From: Candidatus Thorarchaeota archaeon
GTDB lineage: Archaea; Asgardarchaeota; Thorarchaeia; Thorarchaeales; Thorarchaeaceae
Assembly (NCBI GenBank): GCA_038893995.1
Contig: JAWAQK010000002.1
Span: 32,001-96,000, forward strand
Length of the DNA: 64,000 bases
Direction of reading: 5' to 3'
Shown here: piece by piece, positions 1,596 to 54,847 of the stretch
Position numbering within the stretch: the first letter of the stretch is position 1
Layout: the number at the start of each line of letters is the position of its first letter
Program-made: the position numbers and the translations under genes
The notes under the pieces: generated by a model
What the model saw: the letters and a program-made list of their open reading frames with translations, nothing else
Databases searched by the model: none
Told to the model about the DNA's origin: nothing

Positions 1596-2048
1596 TCACC
1601 TGATCGGCTTCTCCTTCTTGCCATATATGAGGGCTTCCAGAGACACGCCATTCACCTTACATACTCTCCATCTTACGCCGGGGAGATCTCCGTATGCCCC
1701 TCCGTAAGCTCCGCCAATGCCCTCGACTACGACCTGGTCGTGCTCATCGATGAACTTGAGTCCACCGTCACCCGGTATGAATGCAGTCACTTGCTTACCA
1801 TTCTTGGAGAGCTGCACTCTGACTGCCTTCCTTATGGCTGAATTTGGCTGCTTGGATTCGATACCGACCTTCTCAAGGACAATCCCGCGTGCCTGCGGTG
1901 CCCCTTCCAGGGGGTCAGTCCTCTTGGCGAGCTTGAGCACACGCCTCTTGTACTCAGCCTTCTTCCATCGGAATTTCTTGCGTCGGGACTTGAGTGGTCG
2001 GGCAGCAAACTCGCCGAGTGGGCTTTTCGAACGATTCAATTGACTCAT
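1596..2048 (-). CDS. rps12: 30S ribosomal protein uS12
   Basis: [21 protein letters not shown]. Confidence 0.98.
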
Positions 2049-2101
2049 CCCCGTTCATTGTTCTCAGTTACTTGCTAGGCAGTGCTCACCACTGGGCTTA
2101 A

Positions 2102-2108
2102 CTTAAAA
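2102..2108 (-). promoter_or_regulatory. Putative internal TATA box for rps12-rps7
   Basis: TTTTAAG on the minus strand about 55 nt upstream of the rps12 ATG. Confidence 0.4.
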
Positions 2109-2129
2109 GTATTATGAAAAGGAGGACGA

Positions 2130-32230: not shown

Positions 32231-35047
32231 CTACCAGAAACCCCGTGTCCTGGCGTATTGCTCTTCTGCTGCAGCAATTGCCCTAAGTAACGAGACTCTG
32301 TCCATTCTGCTAGGCGACAATATCCTGGATGCCATAGTCGGCCCGATGCCCCTTCCAGCTAGGACCATGACTGCCCTCTTGCCGTACTCAGCCACTAGCT
32401 GAGCAGTAAGATCCATCTGTCGTACTAGCCTATTCGACGAAACCCTGTTCCGACGACCATCATAGGTACTATCCTTCTGGTCCCCCCTCCGGATCTTGAA
32501 TACAGATATCATCCTTGATAGGCAGGTCGGGCACGTCACGATTTCGTCCAGTGAGTAGACCTTACGAACTGCGCTCCAGCTGCAGTTTCGGCACTGGAGC
32601 CGGAGTTCTGTGGATAGAAGCCTTCGCTCGAGCAGGGCGAGGATCTCTTCTTCCTCCAGGGTTTCGCCAACCAGTTCAAACCTGGACCTCCCTTCGACTA
32701 TCGACTGTGCAAGTGGGGACATTGACGCTGGAATCACGATTTGAAATTGTATTCTGCCATTCCTGCAGTCTTCGAGGAACTCAATCACGCGTTTCTCATC
32801 CGTTTTCTGAAAGAGGACCTCGTTGAGTGCCTCATCGAACACGGGCGTGTTTCTCAGCAATCTGATAAGATTTCTTGCTACGTTCGAGCTAGCCTCCGGT
32901 TCTATGACGCCCATTCTCTTGGCAACTTGTGCAAATCTGGACAGAAACGCATCTGTATTCTTTAGAGCCAACCGCAGCAGTGTTCTTGTCTGTGCAGCTT
33001 CAAGCCCTTTGAGCACGCATTCAATCTCGGAAGGGTCAATGTGCTGAGAGGTAGAGAGTAGTATCCTGTATGGATCGCTCTCCATTCCTATGTCAATCCC
33101 ATGTCTTGTGGACAGAAGAGCAGACAGCAGCAGGCCAAGTGTCTCATTGGCCCTTGTTCCCAGAGGCACATGAACAACGAGCCCCATACTTGTGCTCTCG
33201 ATGACGACGCGCTTGACAGATGGAATCACGCCAAGTATATGCATGCTAGCGTCGATGCACTGTATCACATACTCTGCTGCTTCCTTAGTCAGCCGATATC
33301 GTTTCTCTAGCCATTTGCAAGCCCTCTTCTTTGTCATGGTTGCGACGTGATTCCAAACGGAAGACACTTCGACAGCCACCTCATAAGGAACTGGAATCAT
33401 CTCTCCCGTCCATCGCGGAGGCGCAGTATCAGTACTGACTGCAGGTCTGCATAGTACCTCCTCATCTATGCTGACGACATCGTACGTCCTACCTGCAATC
33501 ACAAGGCTCGTACCTGCCGCCACATTGGTCTTGACATACTCCTCATCGAGGACTCCTACAGTTCTCCTTGTCAGTATGTCCAATACTGGTACTTGTCTGA
33601 CATCGGGTATTGTTCCCAGATGTTCGTAGTAGAACTTCCTTGTCCTCCTCGTGGCTGCAACACGGTCTCCAATAACTGAGATCAGAGATCTCCGCTTCAT
33701 GAACTCTATGAGACGCTCGATGTGTGATCTGTTGAACATCCTGAACGGACATGTTTCCCTTGTCATCTCAAGCAGCTCGGTCAAGCTCACACTCCCGGAA
33801 TCCAAGACAGCACCACATATCTGATGGCAGAGGACATCCCACGATTCCATCGGTATCTCGACATGCTCGACCTTGTTCAGAATTGCTCTCCGCACAATTA
33901 CACCTGACTCAGTCACATCATCGAGGTTCATTGTTGCGATGACAACACCCTCTGCAGCACCCCCTACCCGATGAGATGCTCTCCCTGCCCTCTGCAATTC
34001 CCTTGATACATTACGTGGACTGCTATACTGTACCACGAGGTCCGCCTGGCCTATGTCTATTCCTAGCTCCAGACTGGAAGTAGCTATCATTGCTTTGCAA
34101 GAGCCATTCTTGAACTCGTCTTCTGCCTCAAGCCGTTCGGACTTCGAGAGAGAGCCATGATGGACTCTGAGCTTGAGTGACGGATCGATTACCCTCATCT
34201 TAAGACCTAGTAGTTCAGCAAACGATCGCGTGTTGGTGAATATCAATGTCGAACTGTGTGTGTTTATCAGATCTAGGATCCTCTTCAGTCGCGCCACGTT
34301 GTATGGTGAGACCTTGATCTCCCGAGCAATCCTCATGTCTTCGTCATCTGGCACGGGCATCTCAACCCGTAGAATCATCCGTCGTGATTCAAATCCTCCC
34401 CAGATGATTCTGACGTACTGATCCGTTCCGCCCAACCATCCAGCAACAGTCCTGGGGTTACCAACAGTGGCCGAGAGTCCTATGCGCTGAATTCGTGAAC
34501 CGGCTATTCTCTCAAGTCTCTCCAGACCGAGACTGAGCTGTACACCTCTCTTGCTACCGGCCAGTTCGTGTACCTCATCAATCACGGCCGTTCGTACGTT
34601 TCTGATGTGCATCTGCATTCTCGGAGCAGGGATGATCGCCTGTAGTGTTTCGGGAGTGAGGATCAGCAGGTCTGGTGGATTCTCCAATTGCTTCTTGCGG
34701 AAGTGTTGTGATGTGTCTCCGTGACGTACACTCACACTCAGACCAACATGGGTACAGATTCTCTCGATGCGCTCGAGCAGATCCCTGTTCAGCGCACGAA
34801 GTGGGGTTATGTATAGCAGCCTCACGCCGCCTGAAGAACGATCGTCAGTCTGTTCTAACATCTTACTTAACAGTGGAAGCAGTGCTGCCTCCGTCTTTCC
34901 AGATCCCGTGGGAGCTACGATCAGGAAGTTATCTCTGGACCGAAGAATCTCGGGTATTGCTGCTACCTGAATTGGAGTTGGTTCGACTATTCCTCTATCT
35001 GCTAGGACTTCTCTTATCCGATCATGCAACAGCTCAAACACATTCAT
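32231..35047 (-). CDS. lhr: Lhr-like SF2 helicase with C-terminal Zn ribbon and HhH
   Basis: APTGSGKT, ITPLRALNRD, DEVH, SAT, HHGSLS, SSLELGIDIG, QRAGRASH. Confidence 0.92.
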   Translation of the reverse strand: MNVFELLHDRIREVLADRGIVEPTPIQVAAIPEILRSRDNFLIVAPTGSGKTEAALLPLLSKMLEQTDDRSSGGVRLLYITPLRALNRDLLERIERICTHVGLSVSVRHGDTSQHFRKKQLENPPDLLILTPETLQAIIPAPRMQMHIRNVRTAVIDEVHELAGSKRGVQLSLGLERLERIAGSRIQRIGLSATVGNPRTVAGWLGGTDQYVRIIWGGFESRRMILRVEMPVPDDEDMRIAREIKVSPYNVARLKRILDLINTHSSTLIFTNTRSFAELLGLKMRVIDPSLKLRVHHGSLSKSERLEAEDEFKNGSCKAMIATSSLELGIDIGQADLVVQYSSPRNVSRELQRAGRASHRVGGAAEGVVIATMNLDDVTESGVIVRRAILNKVEHVEIPMESWDVLCHQICGAVLDSGSVSLTELLEMTRETCPFRMFNRSHIERLIEFMKRRSLISVIGDRVAATRRTRKFYYEHLGTIPDVRQVPVLDILTRRTVGVLDEEYVKTNVAAGTSLVIAGRTYDVVSIDEEVLCRPAVSTDTAPPRWTGEMIPVPYEVAVEVSSVWNHVATMTKKRACKWLEKRYRLTKEAAEYVIQCIDASMHILGVIPSVKRVVIESTSMGLVVHVPLGTRANETLGLLLSALLSTRHGIDIGMESDPYRILLSTSQHIDPSEIECVLKGLEAAQTRTLLRLALKNTDAFLSRFAQVAKRMGVIEPEASSNVARNLIRLLRNTPVFDEALNEVLFQKTDEKRVIEFLEDCRNGRIQFQIVIPASMSPLAQSIVEGRSRFELVGETLEEEEILALLERRLLSTELRLQCRNCSWSAVRKVYSLDEIVTCPTCLSRMISVFKIRRGDQKDSTYDGRRNRVSSNRLVRQMDLTAQLVAEYGKRAVMVLAGRGIGPTMASRILSPSRMDRVSLLRAIAAAEEQYARTRGFW

Positions 35048-35225
35048 CGGCTAGCTTTCCTTTCTTGATGCGGCGCTGAAAGTCATTGATGACTATCCGT
35101 ATGTCGGTCGATAGGGTGATATCCGCTTGTCTTGCAAGCTCTTGAAGCTTGTCCAATGCGCTCTCACATAGAACATTCTCTGAAACTATCTCTTCGATTA
35201 TCGTTCTCATCTCTCGAAGATACAC
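35034..35225 (-). CDS. Small hypothetical helical protein overlapping the lhr start (start uncertain)
   Basis: Open frame (GTG)YLREMRTIIEEIV...ECV with a short overlap of lhr. Confidence 0.4.
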   Translation of the reverse strand: MYLREMRTIIEEIVSENVLCESALDKLQELARQADITLSTDIRIVINDFQRRIKKGKLADECV

Positions 35226-35292
35226 TAGATATGGGGCACATGACTGGAATGACTCGGCAAGCAGTGTCCTGCATGAATCTATACGTTCACCA

Positions 35293-35403
35293 TCATTCTT
35301 CAGATTGTTCCTGCCCCCAAACGCTGTAGGCCAGAATGAACACCAAGGCGAACAATCCAAGCATCAACATGACTATGTAGAGCACATTCTGAAGCGTCTG
35401 CAT
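35293..35403 (-). CDS. 36-aa single-TM micro-protein, Ost4-like (not in ORF track)
   Basis: MQTLQNVLYIVMLMLGLFALVFILAYSVWGQEQSEE*; TTTTAAG box at 35433-35439, about 30 nt upstream (leaderless geometry). Confidence 0.6.
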   Translation of the reverse strand: MQTLQNVLYIVMLMLGLFALVFILAYSVWGQEQSEE

Positions 35404-35459
35404 TGGAATCTGGCGACTCTGCGTCTAGTGCACTTAAAACAGTTGCTACTGCCCGTTGC

Positions 35460-35708
35460 CTACTCAGATCTTTGCATCTCTGAGAATCTGTCGACAAATG
35501 TCCCGTAGACGTCAACCGGTTCAGTTAGAGAGGTCACCTTCTCGATCGTCATGTCAAGCCCGCACGACCCACATCTGACGGTGGCAATGCCCTCCTCCTG
35601 ATACACTTCAATCTTTATTGCAACCTCTCCGCAGTTAGGGCACGCGTACACGTCGGGAATTCGCTTCTGGGGTCGTCGAATCACCTTTTGCCTACGTCTT
35701 CTTCCCAT
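35460..35708 (-). CDS. elf1: Transcription elongation factor Elf1
   Basis: MGRRRR, CPNC...CGSC Zn ribbon, EPVDVY..FVD. Confidence 0.93.
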   Translation of the reverse strand: MGRRRRQKVIRRPQKRIPDVYACPNCGEVAIKIEVYQEEGIATVRCGSCGLDMTIEKVTSLTEPVDVYGTFVDRFSEMQRSE

Positions 35709-47919: not shown

Positions 47920-50658
47920 CTAATACAGATCTACGGGTACCCAGAATGAGTACCAATTGGTCATCAGTGTTGGCAGACCTGATTGGGTGTTCCTCCAGTA
48001 CAGGAACTGGATCTGATAGTTCATTCCCGGTTTCATGGATAGATCCTGGGAGTCACGAGAGTTGAGTGGTATTATGTACTCAACGACTTTGTTTCCAGCA
48101 CCGGACTCCGATGGGTTAATACCCGTGCTGTCCTGCTTCCAGGCGCCTCCTTCGACTGAGTAACCGTCATAGTGTGCCTGACCGTTGTAATTGACTGCAT
48201 GGATATCCACGAAATCGGTTCTTCCGATCTGAGACAATTGGATACCGATTGCGTCATTGGCATAATCGTAGTTCTCCATCTCAATCCCGATGTACATATG
48301 GGTCTCATTTGCCCTCATGTAGATGTCAGCATAGTGCCCCGCGCCGAATACTACGCTTCGCTTGGCAAATGTGCGCTCGGTAGCCCCGATTTGTCCATCC
48401 GCCTTGGCAAAGTGGAGAGATCCCTTCTCCGTCTTCCATTCCGCGCTGGTGCGATTCTGATATTGGTAGAGCATTGTGTAATCTATCTCGTATATCTTGA
48501 CCAATCCGTATCGGTAACTGACAAAGACCGGCTTGAATGCACCGTGGAGAGTGGTCGGAATGTTATTGACCCACCTGGTATCAGTTTCCTTCTCTATGTA
48601 GTACCTGTCGTATGCCAGTCGGTCACTTGACAGGGTTGTGCCCTGAGTTGACCTTGGTTCTTCAAATAGCATCAGCTTATAGAGGGTCGAACGGAAGAAT
48701 GCATCAAGTGTATACTCGTCCTCCTTTACGTCTGCCGTATTCGGATTGTCACCGAGGTAGATTGCATCATCTATCTTACTTGATCCAAGTCTGTCCTCAG
48801 CTATGCGTACCATCCAGGGCCATTTTCCGTCATCTCCTCCCACTCCAGGGACACGATGTCCCCAGTACACAAGGACATGAGTGGCATTCCAGATCTTGAA
48901 CGTCTTCAGTGACTCGGTGAGGTTCAGCGCCATCAAGGCGTATCCCATCAGTGCTATTTGTGTGGAATTATGCGTGGAGTTATCCACGATTGTACGGGCT
49001 CCGCCTGCGGTGCCAATCCAGTATCCGTAGTCCCACCAGGAAGCTATTGTTGCTGATGGTGGGAGCGTCCTGATGAACGTCATCGCAGTCTGCCAGTCTG
49101 TATGTGAAGAATCATATGCAAACTCAGGACGATTGGACGCGCTTGTGGCAAAACTGACGCCTGTGAAGACAGTCATTGAAAGCATTAGACCAACCACAAG
49201 GTATGCGGCGAGTGCATGTTCTGAAGTCAGAGCCGAGCTCACCCTGAACCTTCGTCTCTCGAAAACTGATTTCTGGACGACTATTCTTGCAAAGGGTGCT
49301 AACACTCCATTGACCGCGACGGCACCCAATACGGCTGCTCCCACAGACAGAATCAGTGCTAGCCTTATCATACTACCCGTAAAGTACACTGAGGAGATCC
49401 CGTAGAGCACTAGCAGGATGTCCTCGTCTCTTCGTCTCTTGAATAGGAAGTACATTCCCAGCGGCATGAACAGGACAAGTACTGAGAGGTTGCTGTAGAA
49501 GCTTGACCACGGACTTGGAAGGTGTTCTGCAACTGATGCAAATATGCGTTGTTCCATCCTGAAGAACGGGTTTACCACTGTGAGAAACTTTCCGCCGATG
49601 GTCAGGAATGGTGTGGACTCAAGTGTAGCTATCTGCAACCCGATGTTGCCTGTATAGACGAAGTATCCTACCACTCCAATCGCCGACGTGATGGCTCCGA
49701 ACAATATCGGACGCAAGTATGAACCAAACGCGTCCATTGCAGCTGCACGTTGCCCCGCCATCCTGATCCAGATTTCATACCCAACCAGGAGTACTCCAAT
49801 CCCAACAGGTACCATGAATGACACCGAGCTGATATCGGAGAATCCGTTGCGAGGAACCAAGTTGCCTATGAACAGCCCAAGTGCAATAGTGATTGTGTAG
49901 GTGGACAACAATCTCTGGCTGTATCTTCCAAAGAGTATCATCAAGAACGCATACAGTGCAAATAGGCTCACTAGGAAGTCAGCTGCACCCCATGATGCAT
50001 TGAGGTACGCAATGGCAAGGCCTGCTCCTACTGCGGACAGTGTCGAGTTTCGTTTAAGCGACCTAACAAACAGCCAAAGAGCCAGTACGATCGCAAAGAC
50101 TCCTAAAGACTCGTTGTCAAAGAACCCGGCTATCGATCTCTGCATGTATGCAGGGAGAACCGCCATGAAAAGGGCTGTGAGCATGCCGACTGTGTTGTTA
50201 GACGTCTCCCGTCCGAGAAAGAATGAGAGCAGAACAGTAATTGCTCCCATGATTGCTGGGAATACCAGTGCCACATAGGTGATACTCACCTCTATTCCCA
50301 ACGCGTTGGCCAGATAGTACACAAATGCTCCCGTGAACGGTACACCCAGGTACGCTCTCTCCGCGATCTGACGCCCAAATGGAACCCAGCTCGTGTCGTC
50401 ATACCAGCTGAAGAAAGCCACATAGCCATGTTGAGCTACATACTCAACTAACTTCAGCTGGAACCATGGGTCAAAGGCACGTGGAATTGGCTGGGACTGC
50501 ATCAATGGATATAGCCGCATCATGAGTGCCAATATCAGAATCATTGGCATTGTCACTGCTACTATCACAGTTCCACGGGTGATCTTTGCCTTTGGTCTAT
50601 GAAAGACAAGCGACAGAAACTTTGATGCGGACTTCTTGAGTCTGCTGAGTTGGGGCAT
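47920..50658 (-). CDS. aglB: Oligosaccharyltransferase catalytic subunit STT3/AglB, eukaryote-like, with extra C-terminal beta domain
   Basis: FDPWF, G.FDNE, SVAEH, WWDYGY, DNST, DDGKWPWMVRI. Confidence 0.95.
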   Translation of the reverse strand: MPQLSRLKKSASKFLSLVFHRPKAKITRGTVIVAVTMPMILILALMMRLYPLMQSQPIPRAFDPWFQLKLVEYVAQHGYVAFFSWYDDTSWVPFGRQIAERAYLGVPFTGAFVYYLANALGIEVSITYVALVFPAIMGAITVLLSFFLGRETSNNTVGMLTALFMAVLPAYMQRSIAGFFDNESLGVFAIVLALWLFVRSLKRNSTLSAVGAGLAIAYLNASWGAADFLVSLFALYAFLMILFGRYSQRLLSTYTITIALGLFIGNLVPRNGFSDISSVSFMVPVGIGVLLVGYEIWIRMAGQRAAAMDAFGSYLRPILFGAITSAIGVVGYFVYTGNIGLQIATLESTPFLTIGGKFLTVVNPFFRMEQRIFASVAEHLPSPWSSFYSNLSVLVLFMPLGMYFLFKRRRDEDILLVLYGISSVYFTGSMIRLALILSVGAAVLGAVAVNGVLAPFARIVVQKSVFERRRFRVSSALTSEHALAAYLVVGLMLSMTVFTGVSFATSASNRPEFAYDSSHTDWQTAMTFIRTLPPSATIASWWDYGYWIGTAGGARTIVDNSTHNSTQIALMGYALMALNLTESLKTFKIWNATHVLVYWGHRVPGVGGDDGKWPWMVRIAEDRLGSSKIDDAIYLGDNPNTADVKEDEYTLDAFFRSTLYKLMLFEEPRSTQGTTLSSDRLAYDRYYIEKETDTRWVNNIPTTLHGAFKPVFVSYRYGLVKIYEIDYTMLYQYQNRTSAEWKTEKGSLHFAKADGQIGATERTFAKRSVVFGAGHYADIYMRANETHMYIGIEMENYDYANDAIGIQLSQIGRTDFVDIHAVNYNGQAHYDGYSVEGGAWKQDSTGINPSESGAGNKVVEYIIPLNSRDSQDLSMKPGMNYQIQFLYWRNTQSGLPTLMTNWYSFWVPVDLY

Positions 50659-54430: not shown

Positions 54431-54847
54431 TCAACCATAGGCCGTCTTGAGGCTCATGAGGTACATCATTAGGACCACGGTGATACCGAGCATTAGGATT
54501 GCGATGAGCATGTACCGTGTAGCTCGGCCTGGTTGGAATACAAGTCTTGACGCATGATATAGCAAACCAAGGCCTAGCGATCCAAAGAATACAAGGACCG
54601 CCACAACAAATCCCTCAAGTCCAAGCTGGAAGTCCGGCGTGGGGTATACTACCACCGGTCCACTCGATCCACTGACGACCGCTGGTGGAGTCTTCACCAA
54701 TGCAAAGATGTTTCCTCCAACTACAAACACGTACAGAACGAATATGAACCCAAAGATGACCATGTCTGGAGGTCGCGATACAGTCCCCAGTTTGGGTCGT
54801 TTCAGATTCAGCCTTGGTCTTACTATGAATCGTGGCCACCATGGCAT
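54431..54847 (-). CDS. OST3/OST6-family (OSTC/DC2-like) 3-TM protein
   Basis: TM-GGNIF.LV..PP....G...P......Q...EG-TM-TM pattern as in DC2/OSTC. Confidence 0.8.
   Translation of the reverse strand: MPWWPRFIVRPRLNLKRPKLGTVSRPPDMVIFGFIFVLYVFVVGGNIFALVKTPPAVVSGSSGPVVVYPTPDFQLGLEGFVVAVLVFFGSLGLGLLYHASRLVFQPGRATRYMLIAILMLGITVVLMMYLMSLKTAYG

Follow-up and report, generated by a model that had tools for sequence, protein, structure and literature searches.

The closest known counterpart of the gene described here is the eukaryotic oligosaccharyltransferase subunit Ost4 (yeast Ost4p, human OST4; PF10215; 1RKL, 2LAT, 6EZN, 6C26, 6S7O, 6S7T). In cryo-EM structures Ost4 sits between TMH1 and TMH13 of Stt3, and charged substitutions at its residues 18-24 disrupt the Stt3-Ost4-Ost3 subcomplex (PMC7226087, review). 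Homologues of Ost4 and Ost5 have also been identified in most Asgard classes (Eme et al. 2023, Nature 618:992, PMC10307638), in a report that places a small Ost4-like subunit alongside STT3, Ost3/6, Ost1 and Ost5; an initial annotation of the locus analyzed below had taken Ost4 to be unreported outside eukaryotes, a premise which that publication overturns. That report carries no docking, promoter or synteny description of the Asgard Ost4, and its supplementary discussion is silent on Ost4; the present case concerns the same phylum and the same claim, and is likened to those homologues by description only. The MK-D1 translocon paper (JBC 2024) lists only OST1, OST3/6 and STT3.

Against this background we describe a gene for a 36-residue membrane microprotein, found in 64,000 nucleotides from a Candidatus Thorarchaeota genome (hereafter the window, meaning the whole stretch that was analyzed; Table 1). 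We lean, with modest confidence, toward viewing its product as an Ost4-like partner of the catalytic subunit STT3, a reading that draws on one in-silico test taken together with size, register and topology. The novelty of such a reading is modest, Asgard relatives of Ost4 having been reported in 2023.

Table 1. Positions of the microprotein gene and associated features in the window, with the basis of each assignment
Feature	Position	Strand	Basis
Microprotein gene, 36 aa, single-pass membrane (predicted)	35293..35403	minus	ATG 35403-35401, TGA 35295-35293; frame, orthologs, synonymous variation, STT3 co-fold
BRE/TATA-like promoter element	35433..35448	minus	Window reads ..AGCAACTG-TTTTAAG; ortholog consensus ..CAGCAATGA-TTATAAG
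Elf1, transcription elongation factor, 82 aa, upstream neighbor	35460..35708	minus	PF05129, E 2.5e-18
Four-helix protein, ~75 aa, downstream neighbor, PF2048.1-like fold	35034..35273	minus	Ortholog family, model, PDB match
Lhr-type helicase, 938 aa, last gene of conserved cluster	32231..35047	minus	55-63% identical orthologs, same position in 23/25 same-family loci
STT3/AglB catalytic subunit, 912 aa, predicted partner	47920..50658	minus	PF02516, E 9e-51; co-fold interface; helix map
DC2/Ost3-6-like three-helix membrane protein, 138 aa, second eukaryote-type OST subunit	54431..54847	minus	PF04756, E 2.7e-8, above cut-off

The initial annotation had picked out this minus-strand frame, with one transmembrane helix and a polar tail; the frame was confirmed, and comprises a single hydrophobic helix (approximately residues 7-27) followed by a tail that is acidic. 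Shared with eukaryotic Ost4 are the length of 36 residues and one membrane helix at the same position in the chain, which is the build expected of PF10215, as well as a Gly followed, nine residues on, by a Tyr. This spacing had initially been noted for human OST4, and it agrees with the OST4 chain retrieved in our PDB search. An acidic residue near position 4, conserved in Ost4, had been called absent; this is correct for the window copy, but D or E stands at position 4-5 in many orthologs. Residues M1, Q2, L20, Y26 and G30 are invariant among orthologs, G16 and A19 are almost so, and within the helix it is positions 10 and 14 that vary most; the Tyr is invariant across 28 sequences drawn from several families. 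An N-out/C-in topology and a seat between TM1 and TM13 of STT3 are likenesses by prediction only. Unlike Ost4, the microprotein is encoded in an elf1/Lhr cluster, lacks a His after the Tyr (the Ost4 motif being Gly15, Tyr25-His26), has a strongly acidic tail where that of Ost4 is neutral to basic, and shows no significant sequence or profile match; its binding to STT3, moreover, is a prediction.

The open frame is a genuine gene under purifying selection. A six-frame search with the peptide succeeded in all 24 sampled genomes of the same family, each match lying in an open frame of 39-59 codons, and a profile search recovered an ortholog in 84 of 85 other same-family genomes (E 1e-13 to 1e-19). 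The orthologs, ranging from 33 to 41 residues, retain start, stop, frame and length. Pairwise codon differences among them amount to 4060, 2331 and 6656 at the first, second and third positions, respectively, and an invariant Leu is encoded by six different codons, an invariant Gly by four. It is the combination of ortholog conservation, differences dominated by the third codon position, and a conserved promoter element (described below) that establishes the gene as real. The proposal that it is no gene, and that the spacer between elf1 and lhr merely happens to contain an open frame, is barely credible: the frame is short, and its exact sequence has no match in a collection of 15 billion proteins, but the preservation of start, stop and frame in 84 of 85 genomes refutes it, as do the excess of third-position differences and the prediction of related members elsewhere by gene callers. 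Among 1.84 billion representatives, a profile search yielded approximately 18 small-protein clusters of the family, all gene-caller predictions; the top match of that search (P0001) was discarded as a repeat artefact. Public records name the relatives of the microprotein 'hypothetical protein' only. A strongly conserved gene of 36 codons is either absent from public records or carried there under that name.

Upstream of the gene, the TTTTAAG box that had initially been seen about 30 nt away was located at 35439-35433 (minus), with 29 nt separating it from the ATG at 35403. The element is held at a constant distance, approximately 29 nt before the ATG, in all 24 aligned orthologous loci, in which a conserved GATTCC-like stretch immediately precedes the start. 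To judge from its sequence the element probably represents a BRE/TATA promoter, and its end, 29 nt short of the ATG, implies an mRNA that is leaderless or nearly so.

Comparison of sequences did not bear out the similarity to the Pfam Ost4 profile that the initial annotation had envisaged. A Pfam scan of the window copy and 24 orthologs gave no match to PF10215 (Ost4) at E<=10, and six-frame PF10215 searches of 41 and of 400 genomes from the phylum produced none over the curated cut-off of 25 bits and none at the microprotein locus; nor did a profile of 24 microprotein orthologs (alignment A1), run against PDB sequences, reach any OST4 chain at E<=10. Alignment by hhalign gave a probability of 2.6% against yeast Ost4 (the sequence used being identical to 1RKL and 6EZN) and of 6% (P 0.006) when a broader alignment, A3, was set against yeast plus human Ost4, both runs selecting the register in which the Gly and Tyr of one sequence fall on those of the other. 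When yeast and human Ost4 were placed in a ranking with 1739 membrane-helix windows from the genome to which the window belongs, they came 77th and 80th, respectively, with the A1 profile, and 1200th and 161st with the broader A3 profile; in the reverse ranking test, members of the microprotein family were scattered across the whole range. By these measures the microprotein resembles Ost4 in sequence no more closely than ordinary membrane helices do. Yeast and human Ost4, for their part, reach only E 0.08 against each other in the PDB search, which implies that the profile test has little power either way. Sequence cannot prove kinship between the microprotein and Ost4.

Several candidate matches were examined in the course of these searches and rejected. 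The best near-threshold PF10215 match (22.8 bits, genome G178) falls on the C-terminal helix of a 345-residue multi-pass protein, and is no Ost4. Matches of the A1 profile to helices of CP43 and MrpC in the PDB are weak (E ~1), and Pfam matches of individual orthologs to DUF4500, Sarcolamban and others, also weak and scattered, were read as noise.

Docking at the Ost4 site of STT3, as initially conjectured, was obtained in silico. STT3 residues 1-730 (alignment A2, 23 Asgard STT3s) were co-folded with the microprotein (A1), and gave ipSAE values of 0.78, 0.78 and 0.76, against 0.00 for the best of three controls, which were unrelated 36-residue proteins rather than matched membrane helices. 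In calibration of the tool, 58 of 80 solved complexes and 2 of 110 mismatched pairs attained the corresponding mark; these counts apply only roughly here, custom alignments having been used for the co-fold. Contacts agreed to at least 89% among the three runs, the partner pLDDT was at least 77, and the expected error for the best residue pairs was approximately 1.1-1.3 A. With the STT3 helices assigned from hydropathy and from where the DNE and SVAEH motifs fall, the predicted contacts fall at residues 27-54 (TM1), 154-167 (TM3), 450-461 (the cytoplasmic end of TM12) and 486-505 (TM13), and contacting pairs link STT3 residue 43 with peptide residues 12-19, 36 with 19-23, 156-160 with 23, and 497 with 16-20. 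The groove so defined, between TM1, TM3, TM12 and TM13, is the predicted binding site of the microprotein and corresponds to the published Ost4 site at TMH1/TMH13. The predicted interface takes in all five helix residues that are invariant or nearly so, and leaves out the variable positions 10 and 14. In the Gly-Gly register, moreover, the peptide residues in closest predicted contact (19, 20, 22 and 23) fall within the equivalent of Ost4 residues 18-24.

The co-fold also bears on topology, for which the positive-inside rule cannot decide, neither end of the microprotein being positively charged. As modelled, the peptide is antiparallel to TM1, and it takes the direction of TM3 and TM13 when these in-to-out helices are read in reverse; the contact pairs suggest an N-out/C-in orientation with a cytoplasmic acidic tail, which in the model lies beside the basic N-terminus of STT3 and its basic TM12-TM13 loop. 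Both the topology and the binding to STT3 are predictions of the model. Since STT3-OST4 complexes have already been solved, the favorable outcome may derive from the model's memory of them, and so report likeness rather than binding. One might suppose that the microprotein is a generic small membrane protein, belonging to some other complex (a transporter, translocon or respiratory enzyme) or embedded in lipid with no partner at all, and that its docking reflects a model filling the known Ost4 groove. Chance matches to many families are common among short helices that bear Gly and Tyr motifs, as the weak hits to DUF4500, Sarcolamban, CP43 and MrpC illustrate, and the controls, as stated, were other than matched membrane helices. 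We nevertheless consider this supposition quite unlikely, given the low predicted error, the consistency of three runs, and an interface centered on the conserved face of the helix, and given that neither genomic context nor any search suggests another partner. What stands of the archaeal Ost4 identity originally put forward is a conserved ORF with predicted docking at the Ost4 site of STT3; profile similarity and membership in PF10215 failed.

If the microprotein is indeed an Ost4-like partner of STT3, its own promoter would drive its expression, the mRNA being probably leaderless, and it would span the membrane once, the short N-terminus lying outside and the acidic tail at the C-terminus lying in the cytoplasm. 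A conserved face of small residues (G16, A19, L20, then Y26 and G30) would pack against the eukaryote-type STT3 in the groove that TM1, TM3, TM13 and the end of TM12 enclose, with the tail adjoining two basic parts of STT3, its N-terminus and the TM12-TM13 loop. So placed, the microprotein could stabilize the catalytic subunit, and perhaps aid recruitment of the DC2/Ost3-like protein, as Ost4 does in eukaryotic subcomplex II of the oligosaccharyltransferase. The stabilizing role and common descent with Ost4 are inferences.

The genomic neighborhood tells of other associations. As the initial annotation had anticipated for relatives, the gene recurs downstream of elf1, which is found upstream on the same strand in 25 of 25 same-family loci examined; in the window it begins after a gap of 56 nt from the elf1 stop. 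A gene of about 75 codons for a small helical protein comes next, and then lhr, which tblastn located in 23 of the 25 loci; in the window the helical-protein ORF overlaps the start of the Lhr-type helicase gene. Only short spacers separate the genes of the cluster, and a single promoter element is present, ahead of the microprotein. The helical protein belongs to no Pfam family. Its model, built on aligned orthologs, has a pLDDT of 94, and its best PDB match is the uncharacterized PF2048.1 of Pyrococcus furiosus (6e4j), with which it shares the same four-helix fold (TM 0.79/0.86, rmsd 1.0 A) at 24% identity and a weak Foldseek E-value of 8e-3. A small ORF directly precedes the helical-protein gene in Asgard families f1, f2, f7, f8, f13, f15, f21 and f33, often with lhr next, and those in the seven families beyond f1 likewise encode a short N-terminus, one helix, an invariant Tyr and an acidic tail. 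The pairing of microprotein and helical protein in at least eight Asgard families argues that the pair is old. STT3, by comparison, is encoded about 12.5 kb from the microprotein gene in the window; in relatives the distance is about 20 kb. This reflects general regional synteny rather than an operon. The elf1, helical-protein and Lhr context lends no support to a role in glycosylation.

These associations favor the main rival to the STT3-partner reading, namely that the microprotein is a small membrane protein working with its PF2048.1-like neighbor, and perhaps with Lhr, for example as a membrane tether acting through the acidic tail, with no role in glycosylation. Its position directly upstream of the helical-protein gene in eight families, the single promoter and short spacers, and a similarity to Ost4 at background level are all in keeping with such a partnership, which we hold to be a possible, if on the whole unlikely, account. 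The helical protein and Lhr are, however, soluble and have no link to membranes; candidate relatives in family f18 lack a helical neighbor; and the STT3 co-fold beat its controls. Dependence on the neighbor is also difficult to reconcile with genus g2, in both species of which the helical-protein gene is broken and the microprotein gene is intact and the highest-scoring of all, which argues weakly against such dependence. In those two species (L002 = G016:C30; L005 = G001:C2) a stop codon and a frameshift interrupt the helical-protein gene in its variable middle, and both halves still look conserved.

The two associations might also be combined, in that the microprotein and the PF2048.1-like protein would form a two-gene module, the peptide sitting on STT3 as an ancestor of Ost4 and its acidic tail recruiting the helical protein. 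We regard this combination as doubtful; were it true, the Asgard oligosaccharyltransferase would possess a cytoplasmic accessory with no eukaryotic counterpart.

The microprotein ORF is short and comes first after a conserved promoter, and could in principle serve as a regulatory leader peptide (an upstream ORF) controlling the helical-protein and lhr genes, instead of encoding a stable protein, and its most conserved part, the C-terminal run of Tyr, Gly and acidic residues, faintly resembles arrest peptides. This seems very improbable, however, considering that conservation takes the form of a helical stripe of small and hydrophobic residues along a 20-residue membrane helix, that 36 residues are too few for the helix to exit the ribosome before termination, that in many orthologs a Shine-Dalgarno-like sequence of its own precedes the downstream gene, and that the ORF persists where that gene is broken.

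Returning to the preferred reading, in which the microprotein is an Ost4-like partner of STT3, the genome carries other components of the appropriate kind: a eukaryote-like STT3, the DC2/Ost3-like protein, and a sub-threshold Ost5-like frame. The Pfam search for ribophorin I found no match anywhere, and is hence uninformative. If the peptide truly binds STT3 at the Ost4 site, an STT3-Ost4-Ost3/DC2 subcomplex would predate eukaryotes, which fits the assembly of a multi-subunit oligosaccharyltransferase in Asgard archaea, a claim already made by Eme et al. (2023). To this the present analysis adds the coordinates of a gene that usually goes uncalled, together with its conserved promoter, its predicted interface and residues amenable to testing. 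It also counsels caution, in that the companions of the gene are elf1, the helical protein and Lhr rather than genes of glycosylation.

Some further observations concern individual members of this gene set. The Ost5-like candidate is a 69-codon open frame on another contig (G000:C45:12342-12518, minus), which aligns with positions 10-70 of the 73 in Pfam Ost5/TMEM258 at 20.3 bits, under the 27.4 cut-off. The STT3 and DC2-like genes, given initially with no strand, are both on the minus strand, and the plus-strand translation of 47920-50658 contains 33 stops. In family f18, an ORF of 44 codons with a TTG start occurs at 1977-2111 (minus) of L068 (G102:C1) and also in four other genomes of that family, between genes for a HerA-like ATPase and the ribosomal protein eS1 and with no helical-protein neighbor; it encodes a similar helix, an Ala-Tyr pair and a long acidic tail, and its relationship to the microprotein family is uncertain. 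As regards the helical protein of the window, no in-frame ATG, GTG or TTG lies at 35262-35292 (minus), between the microprotein stop and the conserved N-terminus, and its sole canonical start is TTG 35360, within the microprotein ORF. An in-frame CTG at 35264-35262 agrees with the N-termini of its orthologs, and a CUG start is possible for this protein.
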